58,117 nt of DNA, from the IMG/VR virus record IMGVR_UViG_3300032271_000996, positions 1 through 58,117 of that record; one strand, 5' to 3'. The notes under the pieces were generated by a model. That model made no database searches, had not been told where the DNA came from, and was given only the letters and a program-made list of their open reading frames with translations. This stretch comes from a virus. Lineage: Duplodnaviria > Caudoviricetes. A program made the translations under genes and the position numbers. This document shows, in pieces, positions 6,900 to 57,543 of this stretch. How positions within the stretch are numbered: the stretch's first letter is position 1; the number at the start of each line of letters is the position of its first letter.

Positions 6900-9071
6900 T
6901 TAGATTTCTCCACCCTTGGGCATTTTCGGTTCTTTGAGTTTAATGGTCGGTTCAACCGGAACTTTACCAGATTGACCATTTATGTTATCACCCGCCTGAG
7001 AGGGCGCTACAGGCGCTCCTGTGGCCCCTACAGAGCCTTCTGGTGGCGCCATATTGGGATCTATGGGTAAACCAGTTTGTGGGTCAATTTGAGCATTGGG
7101 GTCAGGAATAACTCCATCATCAATTTCCTTATTGATAAGCTCATCCTGCTCAATAATTTCTTCATCGGTCTGACGAAGAATCTTACGACGAAGATAGTCT
7201 TGAGAGAAATATCTACCAACATAAGGTTCGGCCATTGTTACCATATTCAAACGTTCGGTAAATAGCTCAGATTCCTTAAGTTCAGCAAAATGGTTATCAT
7301 AAAGGAAATCAAACTGAATATGCTCAGCCATTCTTTTCCAATCTTCTGGTGTAACAATATTCTTTAATTGAAGTTGTGTTCCCAGCAAGTCAATAAAAAG
7401 CTGAGAGAATCTCTTGCGTAGTCTTCCAACAAATTTTGTAAACTTAACTTCGTCTCTTAGAATTTCAGTTGACCGCCCTAGATTGAAACCGCTATCTCCA
7501 CCAATTCTAGTTTCTGGAACGTTTAATGACTTATATAGATTTCTTTTAAAATATTCCAAATCCGTTAATTCGCCCAAATTGCTGTTTTTAGTATAAATGC
7601 CACAGGAAAGAGCAAAAGTATGATAGTTATGAATAGTCTCATCGGAATCAATTGTTAGAGTGCCCACTTCAATTTCATCATTTAGATATTCAATATTTGT
7701 GACTGTTATATTTTCATTTTTATGGAGGGGAATCATACTCTGTCCTACAGACAAATCCTTTGCATCAACAAAGCCAATATCATAAATTGGGAATTTGTGG
7801 TCGTAGGTACAAATGATACTTTCTCCATTGTCAAGAGTAATTCTCATAACCTTAGCACTCTTTTGAGTAACCCCCGCCCAAGAAATTAAACCGGGTGCAA
7901 ACTCACCAGTTGTTGGGTGGCAAGAATAAGTCCAAAGTTTCTTACCATCTTTCATTTCAGATTCAATCTCTGAAATTGTTAATTCTCTTCCATCTAGTAG
8001 AGATACCTTTGTATCCATTGCTAGACAGCCCGCAGGTAAGGTATCAACTTCAGTACCTCTACCACCTTCACGTCTAGCAAACCAGTAATCTTCCATAAGA
8101 CTCATAAACTTACGGGAAGTGTCAACTTCGCCTGTAATATTATTATAGTTCATCTTATTACGATACCGCAGCATAACCTCGCGCAGATATTGCTCAGCCT
8201 TGGGCTTTGGCATATTACCAACATCAATGTAGAAAATTCTCTTCTCTGTGCTTCGGCTGAGACGATAAATCACAATACTATCTTCAATCATTCTAAGTTG
8301 ATTGAGAATTTTAATTGCCTTATTGAGATACGAAAGAGTAGTTCCCTTGTTTCGGTCAACAAGACCAGAGGTGCAATATGCGATAGACTCTTTTGTAAAT
8401 CTAATTCCCTTTTCGGCACCGGCTGACATATCACCGGCTCCCACTGGATAGGATTGTTTTGGATTATAAACAAAATATTCTTCTAGTTCTGGAAATACCA
8501 TTTCATTTGGACTTTGGTCTCCATACATTTTGGGACCCATAATATCGCGCTTTTGCTTCTTAGTCTGTCTAACAAAGCGGATTTTCATAGAATCCACATA
8601 CCTAAGATCTTGAATACCGGCGTGTGGGTCTTTGAAATCAATTAGCTTATGATAATGCAATCGTCCATCAATATACCAATTTCTAAAAATTTCGTGACAT
8701 TTATTGTCAAAATCAAGCATCTCAAGAATATACCTAAATTCTCTACGAATAGAATCTTTTATGCCATCACTTGCATTAAGATTTGATAGTTCAATTTCAA
8801 CAGGAGAATCATTAGTATCGGAAACAATTGCCTCATTTACAATATCTTCAATCGCAGTATCAACTTCGTGGTGAAGTGACATCTCACGATACCTCTTAAT
8901 TAGGTCAAATTCAGTCCGGTAGACACCTTCAATATCTACATAAGAGCCAAAAAAGCCAGTAGTCAAATAATGGTCGGAGCCATCTTCATTATTTGGGGGT
9001 ACTGGCGATAGAATATTTTTAGATAATTTCTTAGAATCATCCTCAATAGAAAAACCAAATAATTTAGCCAT
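6900..9071 (-). CDS. g20: Portal vertex protein gp20 (intein-containing)
   Basis: LRMIEDSIVIYRLSR, FYIDVGNMPKPKAEQYL, EDYWFARREGGRGTEV, RDEVKFTKFVGRLR motifs. Confidence 0.97.
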   Translation of the reverse strand: MAKLFGFSIEDDSKKLSKNILSPVPPNNEDGSDHYLTTGFFGSYVDIEGVYRTEFDLIKRYREMSLHHEVDTAIEDIVNEAIVSDTNDSPVEIELSNLNASDGIKDSIRREFRYILEMLDFDNKCHEIFRNWYIDGRLHYHKLIDFKDPHAGIQDLRYVDSMKIRFVRQTKKQKRDIMGPKMYGDQSPNEMVFPELEEYFVYNPKQSYPVGAGDMSAGAEKGIRFTKESIAYCTSGLVDRNKGTTLSYLNKAIKILNQLRMIEDSIVIYRLSRSTEKRIFYIDVGNMPKPKAEQYLREVMLRYRNKMNYNNITGEVDTSRKFMSLMEDYWFARREGGRGTEVDTLPAGCLAMDTKVSLLDGRELTISEIESEMKDGKKLWTYSCHPTTGEFAPGLISWAGVTQKSAKVMRITLDNGESIICTYDHKFPIYDIGFVDAKDLSVGQSMIPLHKNENITVTNIEYLNDEIEVGTLTIDSDETIHNYHTFALSCGIYTKNSNLGELTDLEYFKRNLYKSLNVPETRIGGDSGFNLGRSTEILRDEVKFTKFVGRLRKRFSQLFIDLLGTQLQLKNIVTPEDWKRMAEHIQFDFLYDNHFAELKESELFTERLNMVTMAEPYVGRYFSQDYLRRKILRQTDEEIIEQDELINKEIDDGVIPDPNAQIDPQTGLPIDPNMAPPEGSVGATGAPVAPSQAGDNINGQSGKVPVEPTIKLKEPKMPKGGEI
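7584..8027 (-). mobile_element. Mini-intein (148 aa) in gp20
   Basis: TLPAG|CLAMDTKV...CTYDHKF...GIYTKN|SNLGE: Cys1, block B TxxH, terminal Asn, +1 Ser; no endonuclease domain. Confidence 0.92.
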
Positions 9072-11995: not shown

Positions 11996-13678
11996 TTAAT
12001 AATTATATTCCCAGAAATAAGATGCCGCATCATCATTATCGGTTGAAAACCACACGTTACCATCTTGGTCTGTTGTTCCATCTTTTGCAAGAGAAAGGTA
12101 TCTTTCTGTGATTTCTGGAATAGAAACTGATAATGGAGCAAATCCAAAGGGTAAACCTTCATTTTCTTCCATTTCCTTTTCGTGTTCTTCTCGTATATAC
12201 TTACGAATGTCAGTCTCTGTCATTTCTTTAAAATAATCTTGAGTGACAATCCAGGCGAAAAGGACTAAACACATTACAAGGTCATCATTTTTACCTTCTT
12301 CTGCACTAAAGCTATTATATCTTGATACAAAAGTGGTAAGTTCACCATAAATATCAGAATCTCTAATTAATAGCTTATCCTCTTCAATGAATTGTTTAAG
12401 GCTCATACAGCCTTTACTTTTAACTGGCTTTGACATTTTAATGCCATACTTGACACCTTTACCCGAAAAATTCTGACCGGCAACTTGGCCACCTCTACCC
12501 AAAGTTTTAGTTTGAATTACATTTGGATACCCATATTCATTGTGTAAAATGTCGGCAACGTGTGCATCGTTATTAATTTCACATAATACATAAGCATTGT
12601 TATATGCCCTGGCAACTGGTTCAATAATATCTGGAAATCTTAGAGATGGAATATTATTATTTCTGTATTTTGCAACAACTCTATATGGTATTTGAGATGC
12701 ATCAAAAATAATAAAGGCTGAATAATCTAATTCAATTCCTTCTGCAATATCTACAGTTATTACATATATTTTATCTGGTTGGGGTTCTTCATATACATCT
12801 AGAAGTTCTTGATTGCGTATTGGATGGTCTAAAACCATATTGGATAGTTTTGCGCCACTGATGAGTGTATCAGATGAACCTAAAAATGCGCACTCGTATT
12901 CCGCATCCCAACGAGATTGTCCAATATTTGCAATAGTTTCATCTTTAAATGCGACATCATATTTGTCTTGCCAATAAACTCTCATTGGGATGTAATTATT
13001 CACTCCCTTTATTGCGTCATCCCACATTCTATAATAATGATTCATACCCGCTGGAGTTGAAACTATTATAACCTTTGATTCTTTACCAGAAGTAATAGTT
13101 GGATAAACCGAACTCATAAATTCATCGGCAACTTGGTGCGGCACGAAAGCAAATTCATCAAGAAAGATAATATTATAAGAACCACCTCGCACGGATGATG
13201 CGGAAGTTGATGCCGAAAAGATTTTAGAGCCGTTTTCTATTTCTAATGATGCTTTATTCCAAGAAATAACGCCTTGTTGGAGCCATTTTGGAAGATTTTC
13301 ATAACCTTTTTGTAATCTACTAAGAAGCTCCTTTGCGGTGCTTGCTTTATTTGCCAGGACTGCAATGTTTACGTTATCATTAAAAATGGCATAGTGAAGT
13401 AGAAAAGATACTACCGCAGTAGATTTTCCAACTTGGCGAGGGCATAACACTATATTGAATCTATTAGCTTGAAATGAAGTTAGCATCCTTTCTTGAAAGG
13501 GATACATATTAAAATTTTGCAACCCGTGGTCAAGGGTTACAATTTTCATATATTTTTTGGCAAAATAAATCGGATCTAGAGAACACCTGATCAATTCTTC
13601 TAACTGTTCTGCATTCAAATCAACTCGGGTATTCGCTTTCTTTAAAAGCGGATTACCAAGATAATGTTCTTCCGGCAT
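11996..13678 (-). CDS. g17: Terminase large subunit gp17
   Basis: YLGNPLLKKAN, Walker A PRQVGKST, Walker B IFLDEFAF, nuclease DIAEG and DDLVM. Confidence 0.97.
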   Translation of the reverse strand: MPEEHYLGNPLLKKANTRVDLNAEQLEELIRCSLDPIYFAKKYMKIVTLDHGLQNFNMYPFQERMLTSFQANRFNIVLCPRQVGKSTAVVSFLLHYAIFNDNVNIAVLANKASTAKELLSRLQKGYENLPKWLQQGVISWNKASLEIENGSKIFSASTSASSVRGGSYNIIFLDEFAFVPHQVADEFMSSVYPTITSGKESKVIIVSTPAGMNHYYRMWDDAIKGVNNYIPMRVYWQDKYDVAFKDETIANIGQSRWDAEYECAFLGSSDTLISGAKLSNMVLDHPIRNQELLDVYEEPQPDKIYVITVDIAEGIELDYSAFIIFDASQIPYRVVAKYRNNNIPSLRFPDIIEPVARAYNNAYVLCEINNDAHVADILHNEYGYPNVIQTKTLGRGGQVAGQNFSGKGVKYGIKMSKPVKSKGCMSLKQFIEEDKLLIRDSDIYGELTTFVSRYNSFSAEEGKNDDLVMCLVLFAWIVTQDYFKEMTETDIRKYIREEHEKEMEENEGLPFGFAPLSVSIPEITERYLSLAKDGTTDQDGNVWFSTDNDDAASYFWEYNY

Positions 13679-13706: not shown

Positions 13707-15305
13707 TCAACACTTCCAACTTTTTCTTGCGGCTAATCCACGCTCACCGTGCCAACCTCTAGAACGAGCGCAAAAACTCTTGCGTCGGTTTGCCGCTTCA
13801 CTACCAGGTTTAACTTTTCTAGTTACTCGTGCCTGAAGATGTGAACCTGTTGCACTATTTAATATTCTTCTTCCCTCTGGCGTTAAACCTGCTCCTTTTT
13901 TTACTGGATACTTTTCACCTCTACCCACAGAAAGACTTGGGCCTTCTTCACTTAAACCACTACGTCTTCGATCTAATCTTTTATTGTCATTTCTTATTGC
14001 AACTACGGTTCGGTTATCCTCTCCATTCTCCCAGGGGCAAGGCTTATCTTTTGTTTCTTGTTGTTTGGGGGTTGGTTCTTGATTATTTGATGCTTTTTTA
14101 TTTCTCCAAATCTCTTTTCTAACCTCTCTATTCTTTCTACCATTAGCTACCCTTTTATCGGCTTGAGCTTTTTTTCTTTTTTCCAAATAATCAAAAAGAC
14201 CTTCTTCAACAGATTCAACTTCTTCCCCAATGGTTTTATTATTAAGTAGATAATTTTTTGAATGACTATTTGGCACTTGAATTAATGGTTGGCCAACATT
14301 TTGACTACTTAATTTATAATTTAATACCTTTGCCTCTGGATAAACTTTAACAATGGCATCTGTAACTTCTCTACGGTTAGGAACTCTAACTTGAGGAAAG
14401 AAGAGTTGTGAAGACATCATCTTTCCTCTCCAGGAAAAAAGAATCTGCATCACTTGTCCATTTTGGACTGGTATAACTGCTTCTTTAACACAATTTGGAA
14501 CAGTTTTACCCCTCTTCTTTTTTGTTCCAATCATCTCATAACCCTTCCAACAGGGATCGTCTTTCATCTTTCTAACTTCGGAAAGAGTATAAGGCTTAAC
14601 TAGGCCAATAAATTCAAACTTGGGATTACCTAAAAGGTCTGTAACTATGGTAGATTCTGTTTGAACAGTCTCTACCTTTTTTAGTTTGCTATAATAATCT
14701 GGCTTTTCTGCAAGATGTTGAAGAGCAATTCCTTCGGCTTCTTCTTTATTTGTAGTATGTTCTCCTTCTATTTTAATTCCCATCTTCAGTTGCTTTTGAA
14801 TAGTTGCAACTGAAACACCGTGCTTTTCTGCAATTTTCTGAACACTTCTTACTGGCTTTGTTCCCTTCACTGACCCTTGTTCTTTTTCGTTTGGATTGCT
14901 TTCATCACAGGAACATTCTTCTTCTGTGAGTGATTTCAATACCCTATCAACAACAGATTCACCAAAATTTGGTAGAAGTGGAGTATTTTTTGTTACTTTT
15001 TTGATATTTGGAACTGTAGGGAGTTTACTTGTTGGAATATTTCTAGCTGCCTTTGCTCCAGGTTTAGGTTTAGCTTTTTTATGTTCTTCTGGGTCAATTT
15101 TAAAAGATGCCTCGTCTATCTTTTCACCAGTATTCAAATATTGTGCAGCATCGGTTGTATAATCGGCAGCTCGGGTAATTTTAGATTGAATCCAGGCTGG
15201 GAGCTGTTGGTCTTTACTCTTGATTTTGGATTTCAATAGTTTAATATTCTTTTCAATAGTATCTAATTCAACATTAGACATATACCCTTCAGTATCTTTC
15301 TTCAT
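13707..15305 (-). CDS. Modular basic/acidic protein between gp16 and gp17 (putative internal head polyprotein)
   Basis: 532 aa of short modules (GIKIEGEHT..ALQHLAEKPDYYSKL; DPCWKGYEMIG..VPNCVKE; RRKSFCARS) separated by (I/L/V)xE acidic linkers. Confidence 0.6.
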   Translation of the reverse strand: MKKDTEGYMSNVELDTIEKNIKLLKSKIKSKDQQLPAWIQSKITRAADYTTDAAQYLNTGEKIDEASFKIDPEEHKKAKPKPGAKAARNIPTSKLPTVPNIKKVTKNTPLLPNFGESVVDRVLKSLTEEECSCDESNPNEKEQGSVKGTKPVRSVQKIAEKHGVSVATIQKQLKMGIKIEGEHTTNKEEAEGIALQHLAEKPDYYSKLKKVETVQTESTIVTDLLGNPKFEFIGLVKPYTLSEVRKMKDDPCWKGYEMIGTKKKRGKTVPNCVKEAVIPVQNGQVMQILFSWRGKMMSSQLFFPQVRVPNRREVTDAIVKVYPEAKVLNYKLSSQNVGQPLIQVPNSHSKNYLLNNKTIGEEVESVEEGLFDYLEKRKKAQADKRVANGRKNREVRKEIWRNKKASNNQEPTPKQQETKDKPCPWENGEDNRTVVAIRNDNKRLDRRRSGLSEEGPSLSVGRGEKYPVKKGAGLTPEGRRILNSATGSHLQARVTRKVKPGSEAANRRKSFCARSRGWHGERGLAARKSWKC

Positions 15306-44197: not shown

Positions 44198-44292
44198 ATT
44201 GTTTGCTTGTATAAAAATAAAGGGTTTGCAATAATGCGTCCTATATAGGTGCTCTTCAACCATAAATAATTTGAAGAACCGAGGATTTTTAG

Positions 44293-44784
44293 ATGATTGA
44301 TACGGATAAATTAAAGAAACTTATTGATAAGAAATCTGCTGAACTGAGCAAGCCTTCGCCCCAGGGACAGTCACATAATACTCAAACGAAAGATGCTGAG
44401 AATAAGTTTAGACGTGACCGCGATAAAATGAAGGAAGATATTGAAATTGTTGCCGATATTCTATTCAATGAAGGATATGTTGATTCTCAAGAATCGTTAA
44501 ATGTTATTCTTAGTGTTATGAGTGAAGAATTTATTATGGAGGTAGCTCAGAATTATAGAAACGGCTACTTTGATTTTAAAGGTGGAAATTTGGATTCAGG
44601 CAGCACTCCCCAGGGAAAATTAACAAGAAAGGCTCTAAAATTAATTGATAGCCCCAAGTTAAAAGATAGACAACGCGCAAATAAAATGGACAGAGTTCTT
44701 AAATCATTAACGCATCAACCAGAACTCAATAAAAAGAATGGTTTGAAAAATTCTGCAAATTCTATCGCATATACAAACCGATGA
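44293..44784 (+). CDS. Putative internal head protein (acidic module plus basic cargo)
   Basis: EDIEIVADILFNEGYVDSQESLNVILSVMSEEFIME module; CATAAATA at 44261-44268. Confidence 0.65.
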   Translation: MIDTDKLKKLIDKKSAELSKPSPQGQSHNTQTKDAENKFRRDRDKMKEDIEIVADILFNEGYVDSQESLNVILSVMSEEFIMEVAQNYRNGYFDFKGGNLDSGSTPQGKLTRKALKLIDSPKLKDRQRANKMDRVLKSLTHQPELNKKNGLKNSANSIAYTNR

Positions 44785-45419
44785 AGACATTTGACGAATT
44801 TATCATCGAGGCCAAACATGGTCCCAGAACTCCACGCGAACGAAGACAACAGAGAGGTGAGAATCTCTCAAAAATTTTACAGAGAAGAATGGGGACTAGA
44901 GCAAAAATAAGAGGTGGAAGTAAGGAACACATTCATACAACTGCTGAGCCCGATGATGTTTCAATAGAAATAAGAAAATATAAAAATCCTGCTCACTATG
45001 CCGCAGGTGAAACTCCGAAAGTCAACACGATTAACGGTAAAAATAAGGTGATCAAAAACTCAGAAAGAGCATTTAGAGCAAGACAGTTATTAAAACAGGT
45101 AACTAAAAATCGTAGAAATCCAAAAGGAGCTGTATTTACTACTGATATTGTTCCAAATCTAGAAAGAGAGCACGGTGATTTTGAGAATATCAAAAAGAGA
45201 ACTCAAAATCTTAAAAAGGCGGTGGAAAATGTACCCAGAGAAATTAAAAAAGCTGGAGCAAAAATCGGTGATGTAGTAATAGGAAAGCCTGGACAGACTC
45301 AGAGTGGTGGCCCGGAAAAAGCCGGGAGAAATTCCAGAGCCAGACTATATAAAAAATTACTCCCTAATGCCAGTAAAATGAACCCGGTTACAAATCGTAT
45401 GATGGGTAGAGTAAATTGA
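44781..45419 (+). CDS. Putative capsid-targeted internal protein
   Basis: Starts MKTFDEFIIE-A (T4 IP CTS is MKTYQEFIAE); very basic remainder. Confidence 0.7.
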   Translation: MKTFDEFIIEAKHGPRTPRERRQQRGENLSKILQRRMGTRAKIRGGSKEHIHTTAEPDDVSIEIRKYKNPAHYAAGETPKVNTINGKNKVIKNSERAFRARQLLKQVTKNRRNPKGAVFTTDIVPNLEREHGDFENIKKRTQNLKKAVENVPREIKKAGAKIGDVVIGKPGQTQSGGPEKAGRNSRARLYKKLLPNASKMNPVTNRMMGRVN

Positions 45420-45802
45420 AAACATTTGAAGAATTTATAAATGAGGCAAATCAGCCTAAACCCGATGCTCTTAAAACCATCAGTAAAAACTGGGAAAGAA
45501 GGCCAAATTATAGAGGAGTGAATGTTTATGCATCTCAAAATAAAGACCATATAAAAGTTCACGACTTATTTGTACCATCTCATTTGAGAGGTAAAGGTGC
45601 TGGTAGTAGAATTATGAAGGGTATCACAAAATTAGCCGATAAACAAGGGTTCAAAGTATCATTAAATCAGGCTCCAGCACCTGGTTATAAGAAAAAGTTG
45701 GGCACTTTTTATAAGAATTTTGGATTCAAGCCCAATAAAGGAAGAAATAAAGACTTTACGACAAGAGATACTCATATTAGGCAACCCAATCAAAATAAAT
45801 AG
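45416..45802 (+). CDS. Putative capsid-targeted GNAT acetyltransferase
   Basis: TTG start MKTFEEFINE-A; acetyl-CoA motif A LFVPSHLRGKGAGSRIM and motif B FYKNFGF. Confidence 0.75.
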   Translation: MKTFEEFINEANQPKPDALKTISKNWERRPNYRGVNVYASQNKDHIKVHDLFVPSHLRGKGAGSRIMKGITKLADKQGFKVSLNQAPAPGYKKKLGTFYKNFGFKPNKGRNKDFTTRDTHIRQPNQNK

Positions 45803-45822
45803 TTCATCTAATTGTAACATTA

Positions 45823-46449
45823 ATGAAGACTTTTAACGAGTTTATAACCGAAGCAAGAGCAAGACCCTCTCAAAGGGCTAGTAAAGGTGGTAAAACTCCA
45901 AAATCTGGCAACAGAAGTGGAAAGTCGGAACTAAACCACGATGTTATTATGAGAGGTGTTCCGGGGTCAGGTAAATCCACAATGGCAAAAAGACTTGCAA
46001 AAGCGACAGGAGGTACATCTTATGGATTCGATGATGCCCGTAAAGAAATTCACGGTCATCATAGCGTTCAGGGTCCAATAAAACCTGTTAAAGATCTGAC
46101 TTATAAAACACTTTCTGGGGCAAATCGTATAAAACCTAGAATTTTAGATAATACTGGAACTGCTAAAAACTTTAAAAAGTCAACTGAAAATGAACTTAAG
46201 GATATTGGATTCAGAAATCCACAAGAGGTTTCACCTGATACTAAATCTAGAGCAACATTCCGTCGCAACAGAAAAAGAGACCATTCGGTTCCTCAGTTTG
46301 TTCTAAGAAGAATGTCTCAGCAGAATAGAGAAAATCCTGGCAGAAAAGAAGCAATTGAAAGAGGTAGAGAACTTACAAAACGTTATAGGCTTAACCGTAA
46401 ATCAACCGGGGCCAAATTAGGATTACCAAGAAGAAGAGGTTCAGAATAG
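45823..46449 (+). CDS. Putative capsid-targeted P-loop kinase (PNK/AAA_33-like)
   Basis: MKTFNEFITE-A; Walker A MRGVPGSGKST, DDARKE, ILDNT, lid RRNRKR..VPQFVLRRM. Confidence 0.75.
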   Translation: MKTFNEFITEARARPSQRASKGGKTPKSGNRSGKSELNHDVIMRGVPGSGKSTMAKRLAKATGGTSYGFDDARKEIHGHHSVQGPIKPVKDLTYKTLSGANRIKPRILDNTGTAKNFKKSTENELKDIGFRNPQEVSPDTKSRATFRRNRKRDHSVPQFVLRRMSQQNRENPGRKEAIERGRELTKRYRLNRKSTGAKLGLPRRRGSE

Positions 46450-46467
46450 ATGAAAACATTCAATCAA

Positions 46468-46475
46468 TATAAATA
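46468..46475 (+). promoter_or_regulatory. T4-type late promoter TATAAATA
   Basis: Exact consensus 8 nt before the ATG at 46484. Confidence 0.75.
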
Positions 46476-46483
46476 CTATAAAA

Positions 46484-47197
46484 ATGGATACTAAAGAACT
46501 TTTTAATTTATACGAGTCTTATCTGAATATTTACGAGGCCCCGTTTGAGATTACTGGTCCACACTCTTATAAAACTGGTGATGGTCGCCCTCAAGATGAT
46601 TCTATAATAAAGAATACTCCAACCGTTGTGGGCACTTATAAAGGTGACGACAGCGCCACAAGAAAAAAAGCAAGAAATAAGGCCGACAAACTTAATCAAG
46701 AATATGGGGCTAGTGTCTATAGAGTTAATCGTACCGATGAGCCCAGGAAAAGAGGAACAACTGTAAAAGATTCAGTTGAATCTGATTACGATAAGTTGAT
46801 TAATGAGAGAACCAATATCAGTTATGCAAGAGAGGCAATAACAAACATTAGAAATAATTTAAAGAAATACCCTCAAGGCTATAAAGGTGATGACTTTAAT
46901 CACGAACTTAAACTTGCTAAAAGCGCATTTAAAAATCAAGTTAAGCAGGAAAGAGAGAAAAGAAAAGCAAATGAAGATGTAGAATACGTTCTAGATTATC
47001 TTGTAAATGAAGGCTTTACTGATTCTTATGATGGGGCAGAAGCCATTTTAGAAACAATGTCAGATGAATGGTTAGATAGTATTATTGAGGCCAGAAAAGT
47101 TAAAATTAAGGTTGATGTTAAACGGCCAATAGAATGGAAAATCGCGGATATTGGTCCGGGTAAAAAAGAATACAATATAAAAACTTCTAAAGACTAA
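46484..47197 (+). CDS. Putative internal head protein (acidic modules plus basic cargo)
   Basis: LYESYLNIYE N-terminus; EYVLDYLVNEGFTDSYDGAEAILETMSDEWLDSIIE module. Confidence 0.7.
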   Translation: MDTKELFNLYESYLNIYEAPFEITGPHSYKTGDGRPQDDSIIKNTPTVVGTYKGDDSATRKKARNKADKLNQEYGASVYRVNRTDEPRKRGTTVKDSVESDYDKLINERTNISYAREAITNIRNNLKKYPQGYKGDDFNHELKLAKSAFKNQVKQEREKRKANEDVEYVLDYLVNEGFTDSYDGAEAILETMSDEWLDSIIEARKVKIKVDVKRPIEWKIADIGPGKKEYNIKTSKD

Positions 47198-47590: not shown

Positions 47591-48496
47591 CTATGTAAAC
47601 TTACATTCAAATTCTTGGTTCCAGGCATCAACACCAACAGTATTAATTATCCGTTCTTTCCATTCCTTATCTTTTCCCGGAATATCATACCATTTGATTA
47701 GAGTTCTTACGAACTGATTCTTACCGTCTTCAGAGTCTTTCCAGATTTTATTGAAGCAATCATCCTGTCGTTTAACTGAAGATGCAATGATGACTTTAAT
47801 GGAGTTATCCCCAGTAAACATAGGAAAAATCTTAAGGAAGAGGTCTTGTGCATCCTTATCTGAAAAAGATGCAAACTCATCAAGATATACAAGGTTAAAA
47901 TTCCAACCCTTAAAACTACTGTAAGTTGTATTATTCATAATAACCCTAGAACCATTCTCCAATTCTAATGTAGACTCATTCCATTTGATAATTTTATGTT
48001 GCATCCATTCTGGAAGATTTTCATAGGCATTCAGTAACATTTGAAAAGCACCACGCCCCATTGCGATTTTGGGGAAAAATATTCCATCATTTACATTATC
48101 ATTAAAGATTATATGATGTAAAACATAGAAAAGGCCGGTTGAAGTTTTACCTGCTACTTGTCTGGGTGCCTTCAAAATATTGAAGCGGTTATTGTGATAT
48201 TTATTGATAAGTTTCTCTTGTGGTTCATATAATTTAATATTAGTCAATCCATCTTTAAGATGTTCAAATTTTACATAATTATTGATGAAATATACTGGGT
48301 CGTCCTTGCACTTTTGTAGTTCTTCAATGTGTTTTCTGGATTTCTTGTATTCATCCGTGGACCAATGGTAATTATCCCATCCACACATTATTGCATTTGC
48401 AAACCAGGAGAGCATTAGGTCTTCGTCGCCACCGTATAGTTCTACAAATTCTTTTGCCCATCGTTGAGCGTTCATATCAGTATTTAAGGGTTTCAT
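47591..48496 (-). CDS. Terminase large-subunit ATPase-domain paralog lacking the nuclease domain
   Basis: DPVYFINNYVK, APRQVAGKTS, YENLPEWMQ, LELENGS, VYLDEFA, ends QEFECKFT; aligns by eye with the N-half of gp17 in this window. Confidence 0.85.
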   Translation of the reverse strand: MKPLNTDMNAQRWAKEFVELYGGDEDLMLSWFANAIMCGWDNYHWSTDEYKKSRKHIEELQKCKDDPVYFINNYVKFEHLKDGLTNIKLYEPQEKLINKYHNNRFNILKAPRQVAGKTSTGLFYVLHHIIFNDNVNDGIFFPKIAMGRGAFQMLLNAYENLPEWMQHKIIKWNESTLELENGSRVIMNNTTYSSFKGWNFNLVYLDEFASFSDKDAQDLFLKIFPMFTGDNSIKVIIASSVKRQDDCFNKIWKDSEDGKNQFVRTLIKWYDIPGKDKEWKERIINTVGVDAWNQEFECKFT

Positions 48497-48570: not shown

Positions 48571-49332
48571 TTAAAGAATAGAAGGATTTGGAGCATTTTG
48601 AGTTTTTGGTTTTCTATGCTTCCAATTTTGTTTTCCAGTATTTGCTTCTTTTGTTCGTTGTATTATTTTATCCCTACAAATACCTTCCCCTGAATTTGGA
48701 TTTTTATCTCCAGACCAAGCGCCCCTTTCTATTGCTTTTTGAGAAATTTTAGCTCTAACTTCTTTGTCGTCCATAGGATTTCCATAATCGTTTCTATGTC
48801 TTATTTTAACTTTCATTTCATCTAATGATTTTCTAATCCAAACTAATCCACATCCCATAATAGTTTTTATTTCCCTTAAGGTTTTGCCTTCTTTATAGAG
48901 CTTTGCAATTTGTTCTGGAGGATAATTATTTCTTAAATCATTTATTTTCTTCTCATTTAATACTTTTAAATGAGTTTTTTCTTTCATTATTTTGCTATGC
49001 TTTGGTCTCTTCTTTCCTCTACGTATATCTCCCATTTTTTTCCTTTGTTCTTCTGTATAAACATATCCAGAGGGACCATCCCCACCATCAGTTAAATTAT
49101 AGAGAATACCAGTTTTTAAATCCTTTCTACCAAAGATAGCAATCATATAAATTTCGTGTTTGAATGCTTCTTCTTCTGTAAGATTTTTCTTCAGAAACAA
49201 AATCCTATTTTTTGAAGGCACATAGGCACTATGTCGTCTTCTATCATATGCCCTTTTTCCCTTCCCTTTACCAATATAGTAAGGAGAACCATCTTCTCTC
49301 AAATAAGCATAGGTATAATATACATTTTTCAT
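48571..49332 (-). CDS. Free-standing GIY-YIG-type homing endonuclease
   Basis: YYTYAYLREDGSPYYIGKG..R, catalytic-like E in AFKHE, YNLTDGGDG, NUMOD3-like TEEQRKKM; TATAAATA at 49361-49368. Confidence 0.8.
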   Translation of the reverse strand: MKNVYYTYAYLREDGSPYYIGKGKGKRAYDRRRHSAYVPSKNRILFLKKNLTEEEAFKHEIYMIAIFGRKDLKTGILYNLTDGGDGPSGYVYTEEQRKKMGDIRRGKKRPKHSKIMKEKTHLKVLNEKKINDLRNNYPPEQIAKLYKEGKTLREIKTIMGCGLVWIRKSLDEMKVKIRHRNDYGNPMDDKEVRAKISQKAIERGAWSGDKNPNSGEGICRDKIIQRTKEANTGKQNWKHRKPKTQNAPNPSIL

Positions 49333-54772: not shown

Positions 54773-55174
54773 TCATAAGTCCAAAAGAAACTCAAATGCC
54801 CTCTTAGTTTGAATAATTTCTCTAGTTGAACTTGTATTGTTTTCAACCCAGTAGCGAACCCAAGAATCCTCATCTTTTGCAAGAATGATTAGAGTTTCTG
54901 GTGGTGTGTTGGAGTTTTGAGCAACCCCCAAGCGAACACACCAATCCTTATCTTTTGCAAGAATGATTAGAGTTTCTTGTGGTGTGTTGGAGTTTTCGGC
55001 AACCCTACAGCGAACCCACCGTTCCTCATCTTTTGCAAGAATGATTAGAGTTTCTGGTGGTGTGTTTGAGTTATTGGCAACCCTATAACGAACATTCACA
55101 TTTTTATCTTTTGCAAGAATGATTAGAGTTTCTTGTGGTGTGTCAGCACTTAATGCTAAATCAAATTTGTCCAT
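54773..55174 (-). CDS. LRV/HEAT-like repeat protein
   Basis: Four 24-aa repeats TPxETLIILAKDxxxxVRxxVAxNSN. Confidence 0.8.
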   Translation of the reverse strand: MDKFDLALSADTPQETLIILAKDKNVNVRYRVANNSNTPPETLIILAKDEERWVRCRVAENSNTPQETLIILAKDKDWCVRLGVAQNSNTPPETLIILAKDEDSWVRYWVENNTSSTREIIQTKRAFEFLLDL

Positions 55175-55411: not shown

Positions 55412-55751
55412 TCAAATCTCCAAGATCTTCAAAGAAATTTTCATTCAATGGAACACAATCATCTAGATTGATGTTTGCAGTCACTTTTATCAAATCCTCT
55501 AAAAACTCTTTAGGATAGGTATCATCATCATTCAAATCATACCAGAAAGTTAAATAGCATTGTTCAAAAGGATCATCATCATTTAAAAGAACATAATTCT
55601 TCTGATTATCGGGAAACCATACAAGGTCCATCCAAGTATGAAAATTATAATAAATTGATGTCCATCCAGTCATCCAACAAAGTTCAATCCAATAATTCCA
55701 CCAATTTAATTTAATCTTATCAGATGCTCTAATGAATCTTGAAAATGTCAT
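55395..55751 (-). CDS. Hypothetical Trp-rich protein
   Basis: 118-aa ORF in packed operon. Confidence 0.6.
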   Translation of the reverse strand: MTFSRFIRASDKIKLNWWNYWIELCWMTGWTSIYYNFHTWMDLVWFPDNQKNYVLLNDDDPFEQCYLTFWYDLNDDDTYPKEFLEDLIKVTANINLDDCVPLNENFFEDLGDLIDETI

Positions 55752-56158
55752 AGTTTTGCGTACTCAAGAAAAAAGTTATGTGCTCTTACGGTTTGAATAA
55801 TTTCTCTGGTTGAATTAGGATTGTTTTCAACGTTATCGCGAACATCAAAAACCTTATCTTTCGCGAGAATGATTAGGGCTTCTGGTGGTGTGTTGGAGTT
55901 TTTGGCAACCCAATAGCGAACACCAGAATCCTTATCTTTTGCAAGAACAATTAGAGTTTCTGGTGGTGTGTTGGAGTTTTTGGCAACACACAAGCGAACA
56001 TCCCAATCCTCATCTTTTGCAAGAATGATTAGGGCTTCTGGTGGTGTGTTGTAGTTTTGGGCAACCCTACAGCGAACATAAGAATTCTCATCTTTTGCAA
56101 GATTGATTAGAGCTTCTTTTGGAGTGTTGGGGTCTATACTTTCGCTAAATTGACTCAT
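55748..56158 (-). CDS. LRV/HEAT-like repeat protein (paralog of 54773-55174)
   Basis: Four 24-aa repeats; shared C-terminal STREIIQT. Confidence 0.8.
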   Translation of the reverse strand: MSQFSESIDPNTPKEALINLAKDENSYVRCRVAQNYNTPPEALIILAKDEDWDVRLCVAKNSNTPPETLIVLAKDKDSGVRYWVAKNSNTPPEALIILAKDKVFDVRDNVENNPNSTREIIQTVRAHNFFLEYAKL

Positions 56159-56799: not shown

Positions 56800-56853
56800 G
56801 AAAACTGACTCGAACGATTTTTTAATAAATACTTCAACTAACATTTAAATGTA

Positions 56854-57543
56854 ATGAAAACTTTTGAAGAGTTTATTTCGGAAAGGTATTACTCACCTAA
56901 TACAAAACTTCCAGGTTCTGGTAAAACTCCAGTAGAAAAAGCCGTTAATAGGAATAAACAAAGAAATGATAATATTGGACCAAATTCAGATATTGTAAGA
57001 GCAGTAAAGCACAAGTCATTGATACCAAAAGTAAAACATGGAGCCGATAACAAAAATTACAATCCACATTCAAATCATCCTGATGTAGATATAGATGCTC
57101 ATAAAGACCATTATATGACTGTTCATCATCATCCTTCTGGAATTAGTTTTAATGCAACAAAATCAGCAGATGGTATTCATAGTGTTGAATGGGAACATGG
57201 TAGAAATACGCGGAACATGAGACCTAGTGAAAGAGTTAGATTGGCAAAAACTGCTAAGCACGTATGGGATAATCACGTTGTTACAAATATTCCGCACAAT
57301 TCAATAATTCATAATCGCCCATATTTTGATATTAAAAGAAGTACCGGTGAGGAAAGAAATAAGAGAGCAGAGATTTATCAAAATAGAGGAGGATTTGGAC
57401 CAATGGATAAACATGGAGATCAATTTGGTTTTGTGGGTCGCCCTCTTTCACCTAAACAAAAAGCAAAAGGTAAAAAGCAAGTTCAACCAAGAAATCCAGA
57501 AGAGGTTAAAAAATCTGTCAATTGGGACGGACCAATGTTGTAA
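56854..57543 (+). CDS. Putative capsid-targeted internal protein
   Basis: MKTFEEFISE-R; basic and His-rich; AATAAATA at 56824-56831. Confidence 0.7.
   Translation: MKTFEEFISERYYSPNTKLPGSGKTPVEKAVNRNKQRNDNIGPNSDIVRAVKHKSLIPKVKHGADNKNYNPHSNHPDVDIDAHKDHYMTVHHHPSGISFNATKSADGIHSVEWEHGRNTRNMRPSERVRLAKTAKHVWDNHVVTNIPHNSIIHNRPYFDIKRSTGEERNKRAEIYQNRGGFGPMDKHGDQFGFVGRPLSPKQKAKGKKQVQPRNPEEVKKSVNWDGPML

Follow-up and report, generated by a model that had tools for sequence, protein, structure and literature searches.

A cassette of basic proteins with a putative T4-type capsid-targeting leader, including predicted acetyltransferase and polynucleotide-kinase-like cargoes, in a cyanophage-type genome fragment

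We analysed a 58,117-base stretch of viral DNA (IMG/VR record IMGVR_UViG_3300032271_000996, referred to here as the window) in which four plus-strand genes open with the same ten-residue leader, MKTF[DEN]EFIxE. The leader resembles the capsid targeting sequence of the internal proteins of phage T4, and the four proteins behind it (cargoes 1 to 4) are predicted to include a GNAT acetyltransferase and a polynucleotide-kinase-like protein. We favour, as the fairly probable reading, a cyanophage-type counterpart of the T4 internal-protein system, in which such proteins would be packaged into the head, cleaved and injected. The two enzyme assignments are firmer than this packaging, cleavage and injection mechanism.

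The leader genes start at positions 44781, 45416, 45823 and 56854, and their leaders read MKTFDEFIIE-A, MKTFEEFINE-A, MKTFNEFITE-A and MKTFEEFISE-R, respectively. Phe4, Phe7, Ile8 and Glu10 are kept in all four. A degenerate DNA pattern for K-T-F-x-E-F-I-x-E has four exact matches in the window and five when up to two mismatches are allowed, against 0.06 expected; five or more matches occurred in 0 of 100 shuffles. Of the seven conserved codons that follow the start, five differ synonymously among the four copies, and it is therefore the peptide that is conserved rather than a DNA repeat. Past the leader the four cargoes are unrelated, and profile comparisons align only their first 9–12 residues. 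Once the first ten residues are removed, the mature parts of cargoes 1–4 have isoelectric points (pI) of 11.15, 10.61, 11.44 and 10.08 and net charges of +17 to +31. The leader forms a short helix (residues 4–12) in the AlphaFold2 (AF2) models of cargoes 1 and 2. An earlier note, made from the DNA letters alone, had described three consecutive genes and a fourth at 56854 that share a leader and then diverge into strongly basic proteins, one of the cassette products being of unknown type; the four open reading frames, the leader-only alignments, the basic pI of every cargo and the lack of a Pfam or PHROG family for cargo 1 all agree with that description.

The same note had likened the leader to that of the T4 internal proteins. 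This comparison holds, in that the residues at T4 positions 4, 7, 8 and 10 are kept and the same DNA pattern, applied to T4 as a control, finds ipII and ipIII, both of them annotated as internal proteins of the virion. Passages of PMC8442874 describe the T4 targeting sequence, MKTYQEFIAE, as being cut once while the cargo remains in the head, with about 1000 copies of the internal proteins per head. Passages of PMC9026906 report suppressor experiments in which targeting depended on residues 4 and 7 and processing on residues 8 and 10, and in which Asp at position 10 blocked processing but not targeting. The T4 control also picks out gp61.1 (NC_000866, 18966–19130, minus strand; L243), a 54-residue hypothetical protein beside the primase gene that starts MKTFKEFIKE and so matches the leader at every fixed position.

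We scanned IMG/VR for exact MKTFxEFIxE and found it in at least 120 stretches. The matches listed include 116 complete open reading frames of at least 50 residues, which yield 109 distinct proteins and, with the leader removed, at least 43 cargo clusters (blastp, 1e-5). The mature parts of these 109 proteins have a median pI of 10.4, with 87% above 9, and the residue after Glu10 is Ala in 52, Ser in 20, Cys in 11 and Val in 9. A Pfam scan of 113 proteins (the 109 listed plus the four from the window) identified S-AdoMet lyases (13), DUF5661 (4), DUF6321 (2), domains resembling DPBB lytic transglycosylases (2), GNAT (2), ART-PolyVal (1), a Zn protease (1) and AAA_33 (1). The leader-tagged S-adenosylmethionine (SAM) lyases, members of an anti-restriction enzyme family, occur at L013, L011 and 11 other IMG/VR loci. 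By sequence, the S-AdoMet lyases, the ART-PolyVal protein and the GNAT, with its distant relatives in polyvalent proteins, fit delivered effectors. Two fused forms contain an internal leader-like peptide, in the style of EEFITE-A, that links two modules. All five complete leader-bearing genomes tested encode Peptidase_S77, the family of the T4 gp21 protease, among them the closest complete relative we found, G001 (243 kb, with terminal repeats and a portal protein 85% identical to that of the window).

The relatives of cargo 4 are informative about the end of the leader. The mature part opens with [KRE]YY in each of the 18 family members, directly after a Glu that is preceded by (I/L)-x. Where the leader is lengthened it always ends in (I/L)xE immediately before the conserved [KR]YY, and members with Asp at position 10 have a new LQE or IQE just after it. 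The same arrangement is seen in Prochlorococcus phage P-TIM68, where a hypothetical SAM-lyase-like protein (118770–119267; L249) begins MKTYKEFIQD-IQE-S and lies behind an ATAAATA motif. A putative cleavage site can be placed at the leader end because the preference for a small residue after Glu10 and these compensating (I/L)xE sites both point to proteolysis.

Cargo 2 (45416–45802, plus strand, TTG start) has 128 residues, of which 118 are mature, and by sequence and model it is a minimal GNAT with a mature pI of 10.61. Three Pfam models score above their cut-offs: Acetyltransf_7 (29.2 bits; cut-off 27), Acetyltransf_10 (26.4; 23.6) and Acetyltransf_1 (25.3; 20.7). In GNATs the pyrophosphate of acetyl-CoA is bound by a loop of the form R/Q-x-x-G-x-G/A, which in cargo 2 reads R58-G-K-G61-A-G63. 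Across 55 homologues R58, G61 and Y99 never vary, conservation of G63 is at least 90%, and a further motif, NKGRNKDF, is specific to the family. The AF2 model has a pLDDT of 82.8, and a Foldseek search with it returned 12 PDB matches at E <= 0.001, 12 of 12 being GNATs. The N-terminal acetyltransferases Naa50 (E 1.4e-4) and Ard1 head these matches. AcrVA5 (PDB 6iuf) aligns with a TM-score of 0.69 (target-normalised) and an rmsd of 2.9 over 93 columns (E 7.6e-4). AcrVA5 acetylates Cas12a, and no target for cargo 2 can be deduced from the likeness. By analogy, cargo 2 probably acetylates a host protein.

The relatives of cargo 2 fall into leader-bearing and leaderless forms, with the leader at the start in 25 of the 80 loci kept. 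Many of the leaderless relatives are domains inside proteins of 400–2500 residues, and polyvalent-protein domains (LPD38, LPD22, InPase, ART-PolyVal) were found in 3 of 8 large GNAT proteins scanned. In parts of their study, Iyer et al. (2017, PMC5512222) place GNATs beside ADP-ribosyltransferases (ARTs) in polyvalent proteins, assign them to a RimI-like, protein-modifying clade and argue that they are delivered by the virion.

Cargo 3 (45823–46449, plus strand, 208 residues) is, by sequence, a kinase-only relative of T4 polynucleotide kinase. It matches Pfam AAA_33 (33.8 bits), a PHROG family of polynucleotide kinases and, by tblastn, the kinase domain of T4 pseT at about 30% identity; among PDB entries its sequence matches T4 Pnk best (1ly1, E 3.7e-4). 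The P-loop, G45-x-P-G-S-G-K51-S52, is invariant among 26 homologues. The same is true of K51, S52, D70, R73 and R152, which align with K15, S16, D35, R38 and R126 of the T4 enzyme, all of them essential there, as is Asp85 (PMC2831316). D70 corresponds to the general base Asp35 of the T4 enzyme and R73 to Arg38, which binds the acceptor phosphate. The lid arginine, R152, lies in RRNRKR in cargo 3 and in KRNSKR (as R126) in T4, and the V-P nucleobase contact of T4 Pnkp also aligns. In a pairwise alignment the invariant D109-N-T of cargo 3 lies one position off register relative to T4 S84-D85-T86. The kinase match covers residues 41–173, and the protein has basic N- and C-terminal extensions, the latter a tail running to residue 208. 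Cargo 3 contains no 3'-phosphatase (DxDxT) domain, and we therefore class it as kinase-domain-like rather than as Pnkp. The leader stands at the start of all 26 homologues, down to 45% identity. By analogy with its relatives, the probable substrate of cargo 3 is RNA or DNA with 5'-OH ends. Judged by their conserved residues, both enzymes look catalytically intact. The earlier note's acetyltransferase and P-loop kinase are thus upheld, the former by its Pfam scores, its acetyl-CoA loop and its uniformly GNAT top structural matches, and the latter by AAA_33, the T4 Pnk match and invariant catalytic residues, with the more precise description of polynucleotide-kinase-like.

The functions of the other two cargoes are unassigned. 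Cargo 1 (44781–45419, plus strand; leader MKTFDEFIIE, 212 residues, 202 mature) has a confidently predicted alpha/beta fold (AF2 pLDDT 80.8). Its sole strong viral match is a homologue in phage S-SRM01, which carries two tandem cargo 1 paralogues with a variant leader, MKTFQEFQES, and a search of the protein Atlas gave no usable match. Two candidate relationships for cargo 1 were rejected. The GNATs retrieved by Foldseek all had E > 0.2 and a TM-score of about 0.25, and a profile comparison with GNATs aligned the leader only; a likeness to the DNase-I-like subdomain of RNase E was not significant (E 0.056, TM-score 0.28). Cargo 4 (56854–57543, plus strand; leader MKTFEEFISE, 229 residues, 219 mature) had no tblastn match in cultured phages. 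A GNAT relationship was also set aside for this protein, the GNAT neighbours in the Atlas having TM-scores of 0.34–0.44, below threshold on a poor model, and hhalign giving a probability of 3.4%; such a relation is a weak lead only.

Sequences resembling T4 late promoters are found along the cassette. The motif NATAAATA lies 23–37 nt upstream of eleven minus-strand genes, including those for the sheath, TerL, gp25 and a fibre protein, and 8 nt upstream of one more; given its position before structural genes, we take it to be the phage's T4-type late promoter. On the plus strand it occurs at -31, -28, -15 and -29 before orfA, cargo 3, orfB and cargo 4, respectively. These copies are CATAAATA (44261–44268, T4-type, 31 nt upstream of the open reading frame at 44293), AATAAATA (45794–45801, 28 nt upstream of cargo 3), TATAAATA (46468–46475, an exact match to the T4 late-promoter consensus, 15 nt upstream of orfB) and AATAAATA again (56824–56831, 29 nt upstream of cargo 4). 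Neither cargo 1 (44781) nor cargo 2 (45416) has a NATAAATA motif of its own, and the earlier note's placement of late motifs ahead of the leader genes stands for 45823 and 56854 and fails for 44781 and 45416. The cargo 1 start overlaps the orfA stop (ATGA) and the cargo 2 TTG start overlaps the cargo 1 stop (TTGA); orfA, cargo 1 and cargo 2 probably form one operon, transcribed from the motif that precedes orfA by 31 nt. Among the IMG/VR leader genes listed, ATAAATA is found in the 80 nt upstream of 37 of 123, in 34 cases between -35 and -21, compared with 40 of 2400 random positions. These motifs suggest that the cassette would be expressed late, together with the structural genes.

Two further genes flank the first three cargoes and may, judging from their sequences, encode additional prohead-core or processed proteins. 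The first, orfA (44293–44784, plus strand, 163 residues), has no leader. The second, orfB (46484–47197, plus strand, 237 residues), starts with a 19-residue alternative N-terminal peptide that ends NIYE-A and is conserved in G001, and its middle segment is homologous to gp253 of Synechococcus phage B23, which has a standard MKTYREFISE leader. The two share a paralogous segment of about 64 residues (36% identity, E 3e-10) with the motif NEG[YF]xDS...MS[ED]E[FW], located C-terminally in orfB. In orfA this segment ends in the cleavage-site-like EEFIME-V, and a site of the (I/L)xE-A style closes both segments. A database protein, P0002, joins an N-terminus like that of orfA to a homologue of cargo 1 through EEFITE-A. 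Only one partial relative of orfB was found in IMG/VR. Directly after the cargo 3 stop lies a truncated fifth leader, MKTFNQYKYYKNGY followed by a stop (46450–46494, plus strand, 14 codons, MKTFNQ...), which overlaps both the orfB promoter motif and the orfB start and probably marks where a cargo gene was lost.

The cassette belongs to a T4-type genome. On the minus strand the window encodes the portal protein gp20, tail tube, sheath, large and small terminase subunits, head-completion and neck proteins, baseplate wedge proteins and fibre-like giant proteins, and the cassette adjoins the baseplate genes. The portal shares 70% identity with its counterparts in Synechococcus phages B3 and B23, and 63–69% with those of other Kyanoviridae. 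A remnant of psbA is present in G001 and intact psbA in two other complete leader-bearing genomes; B23 has no psbA. We use the cyanophage label because of the portal identity to B3 and B23 and the presence of psbA in complete leader-bearing relatives. It is a reasonable inference from these relatives, the host itself not having been demonstrated. At the DNA level the cassette has no match among cultured phages. At the protein level, B3 and B23 each have two leader genes, annotated as hypothetical, beside gp25-gp6-gp7, which is the position of the cassette in the window, and gp252 there is a homologue of the GNAT; S-SM2 has a looser variant, MKTLGQFLAE-A. The patterns used found no convincing leader gene in Syn9, S-PM2, P-SSM2, S-SM1, KVP40 or HTVC008M.

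Comparison of related loci indicates that the cassette varies in content. The neighbourhood is syntenic in G001, with a glycosyltransferase-like gene and an orfA homologue followed by leader genes. The G001 set consists of an extra 77-residue leader protein, a cargo-1 homologue and a broken GNAT gene, with no kinase and with a shorter orfB; the B23 cassette locus has two cargo genes only. Among related contigs from four metagenome runs (freshwater or aquatic), breaks fall at 45413, 45477 and 46469, and in a single contig 45477 is joined to 46469. Over the kinase body (45892–46467) the four DNA metagenome runs gave no contig of at least 85% likeness, a gap in cover that by itself proves nothing. 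The modular set foreseen in the earlier note is evident in the 43 or more cargo clusters, the differing content of G001 and the contig joining 45477 to 46469.

In the reading that we favour, a cyanophage-type internal-protein system, MKTFxEFIxE would act as a capsid targeting sequence that binds the scaffolding core, so that the cargo is built into the prohead. A gp21-type prohead protease would then cut after Glu10, and the basic mature protein would remain beside the DNA inside the head and accompany it into the host. On this view the cassette serves as a swappable rack of cargoes, expressed late alongside the structural genes. By analogy with T4 we infer packaging, cleavage and injection, and likewise the substrates and a role in host takeover or anti-defence.

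Several observations weigh against this reading. In cyanophage-type phages, packaging, cleavage and injection of leader proteins are argued from homology and comparative patterns. Virion proteomes have been published for the cyanomyoviruses S-SM1, S-PM2 and Syn9, and they cannot test packaging because these phages have no convincing leader gene; the S-SRM01 publication contains no virion proteomics. The window is a fragment (CheckV completeness 27%) and contains no gene for gp21, gp22 or gp23. In T4, the same pattern misses ipI and finds gp61.1, which has no annotation as an internal protein, so the leader motif is a strong indicator and not proof. T4 Ip1–3 are specific, stoichiometric and non-enzymatic inhibitors of GmrSD restriction enzymes. 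Within the window set, cargo 1 has neither a Pfam or PHROG family nor a significant PDB match, cargo 4 has no Pfam or PHROG family from which a function could be assigned, and the residue after Glu10 in cargo 4 is Arg rather than a small residue. Finally, the GNAT gene of G001 (L145, 4001–4380) is split into pieces of 45 and 60 residues and is thus dispensable there; the psbA remnant of G001, with two stops, lies about 3 kb downstream of it.

There are alternatives. The proteins could be packaged by way of the leader and yet serve mainly as bulk basic head proteins that neutralise or organise DNA or work inside the capsid, with enzyme folds that are incidental or decaying and no effector action on the host. 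This would suit their pI of 10.1–11.4 and charge of +17 to +31, the median pI of 10.4 over the 109 listed proteins, the broken GNAT of G001, and cargoes 1 and 4, which have no enzymatic signature; passages of PMC8442874 put T4 internal proteins at roughly 1000 per head. It is hard to square with the invariance of R58, G61 and Y99 in 55 GNAT sequences and of K51, S52, D70, R73 and R152 in 26 kinases, since invariant catalytic and cofactor residues argue for selection on activity. SAM lyases and an ART on the same leader make sense only against host targets, and all three T4 internal proteins act in the host cytoplasm. We regard the bulk-protein explanation as unlikely.

The shared N-terminus might instead be no capsid address at all and act as a translation-initiation context, a recombination handle, or a localisation or degradation signal, the proteins working in the cell late in infection. 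T4 gp61.1 has the motif and is not a known internal protein, virion presence is argued by analogy, and the contig breaks at 45413, 45477 and 46469, with the 45477–46469 join, lie near leader or promoter boundaries, which fits a recombination role for these boundaries. Against it, the codons vary synonymously while the peptide is fixed, which indicates selection on the peptide, and the conserved positions are exactly those that T4 needs for targeting and processing in the experiments described in parts of PMC9026906. The small residue after Glu10 and the compensating (I/L)xE sites suggest proteolysis, the late-promoter motifs are like those of structural genes, and the leader co-occurs with a gp21-type protease. 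We consider this second explanation quite unlikely. That the four leaders are a chance likeness, or functionless leftovers of a recent local duplication, has in its favour that three of the four genes are adjacent. This idea is already refuted by the pattern statistics (four exact matches, and five within two mismatches where 0.06 were expected), by spread to at least 120 other viral stretches with at least 43 cargo clusters, and by conservation of the leader down to 45% identity on cargoes that are unrelated; its probability is close to nil.

Beyond the counterpart system itself, we tentatively raise a broader possibility, one that we would not yet bet on. MKTFxEFIxE may be an address label for injected proteins shared across the T4 superfamily, with the GNAT and the kinase arriving pre-made to disarm host immunity ahead of all phage gene expression. 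If so, a search for a ten-residue motif would reveal which effectors uncultured cyanophages and other aquatic T4-like phages deploy in the first minute. A defence or translation protein could be the substrate of the GNAT, as Cas12a is for AcrVA5, and RNA ends produced by host nucleases could be repaired or redirected by the kinase.

Injected proteins are a first line against host immunity because they act before any phage gene is expressed, and in T4 only three are understood, all of them restriction inhibitors. Should the tag work in cyanophage-type and aquatic T4-like phages, it would allow candidates for injected effectors to be listed cheaply, from sequence alone, for uncultured viruses whose hosts are ecologically dominant. 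Enzymes (an acetyltransferase, a polynucleotide kinase, SAM lyases and an ADP-ribosyltransferase) would then be seen to ride on the tag as well as inhibitors. The tag is in addition a candidate natural signal for packaging foreign proteins into cyanophage heads, as has been done with T4. The novelty that the earlier note had claimed survives in part. Our literature search linking the leader with cyanophages found no report of this leader with enzymatic cargoes in cyanophage-type genomes. Passages of PMC9026906 show that diverse cargoes on the T-even leader were already known, and PMC5512222 already covers both T4 Alt, an enzyme packaged in the head, and polyvalent proteins with GNAT domains that the virion delivers.

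Other features of the window were recorded alongside the cassette. A 532-residue late gene product without a leader (13707–15305, minus strand), encoded between the small and large terminase genes, is a mosaic of DUF5661, DUF6321 and CWxGY...C modules that are found elsewhere on leader-tagged cargoes, and may be another internal head protein. The portal gp20 (6900–9071, minus strand, 723 residues) has an insert of about 150 residues (residues ~349–496) that is absent in relatives, whose matches span residues 1–348 and 497–719. The insert scores 34.9 bits against Intein_splicing, slightly under the cut-off of 35.8, also has a PT-HINT match, and is likely a mini-intein; the G001 portal open reading frame is larger still, at 1038 residues. 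Two minus-strand features, at 47591–48496 and 48571–49332, comprise a second, divergent copy of the TerL ATPase domain and a homing-endonuclease-like open reading frame, with the TerL copy directly downstream of the latter. This copy has 301 residues, is 36% identical to residues 24–265 of the main TerL (11996–13678) and does not include the nuclease half. Two small minus-strand open reading frames (54773–55174 and 55748–56158) consist of leucine-rich-repeat-variant or HEAT-like repeats.

The enzymatic cargoes can each be compared with known proteins. The named relatives of cargo 3 are T4 Pnkp (pseT), Clostridium thermocellum Pnk and archaeal PSTK. T4 Pnkp, unlike cargo 3, has no capsid leader, the T4 pattern scan finding ipII, ipIII and gp61.1 only. 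Cargo 2 is, like AcrVA5, a minimal GNAT from a mobile element, and the 96-residue AcrVA5 is its best compact structural fit, although the identity is only 19% and Naa50 and Ard1 do slightly better by E-value. Its distant homologues among the polyvalent-protein GNATs sit in proteins of 500–2500 residues with LPD38, LPD22, InPase and ART-PolyVal domains. At one such locus (L209) an ART lies directly N-terminal to the GNAT, as for one of two GNAT families described in parts of PMC5512222; identity with that family is not established because the accession named in the paper was not compared. Cargo 2 differs from these GNATs in being a solo protein of 118 mature residues with a cleavable-type T4 tag rather than a module of a giant protein.

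For an enzyme inside a T4-type head that modifies host proteins, the precedent is T4 Alt. It is an ADP-ribosyltransferase that is packaged in the head, processed by gp21 and injected with the DNA; passages of PMC9026906 describe processing at both termini. An ART-PolyVal protein carries the leader in IMG/VR, and the enzymes of the window are a GNAT and a kinase where Alt is an ART. The closest parallel to the whole set is provided by the T4 internal proteins, which, like the window proteins, combine a ten-residue leader with unrelated, basic, non-essential-looking cargoes at variable loci of a T4-type genome. The two sets differ in lineage (Kyanoviridae-like in the window, Straboviridae for T4) and in the residue at position 4 (Phe against Tyr). 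They also differ in that the T4 internal proteins are inhibitors with proven packaging and cleavage, whereas the window set includes two enzyme cargoes on a leader system known from its genes.

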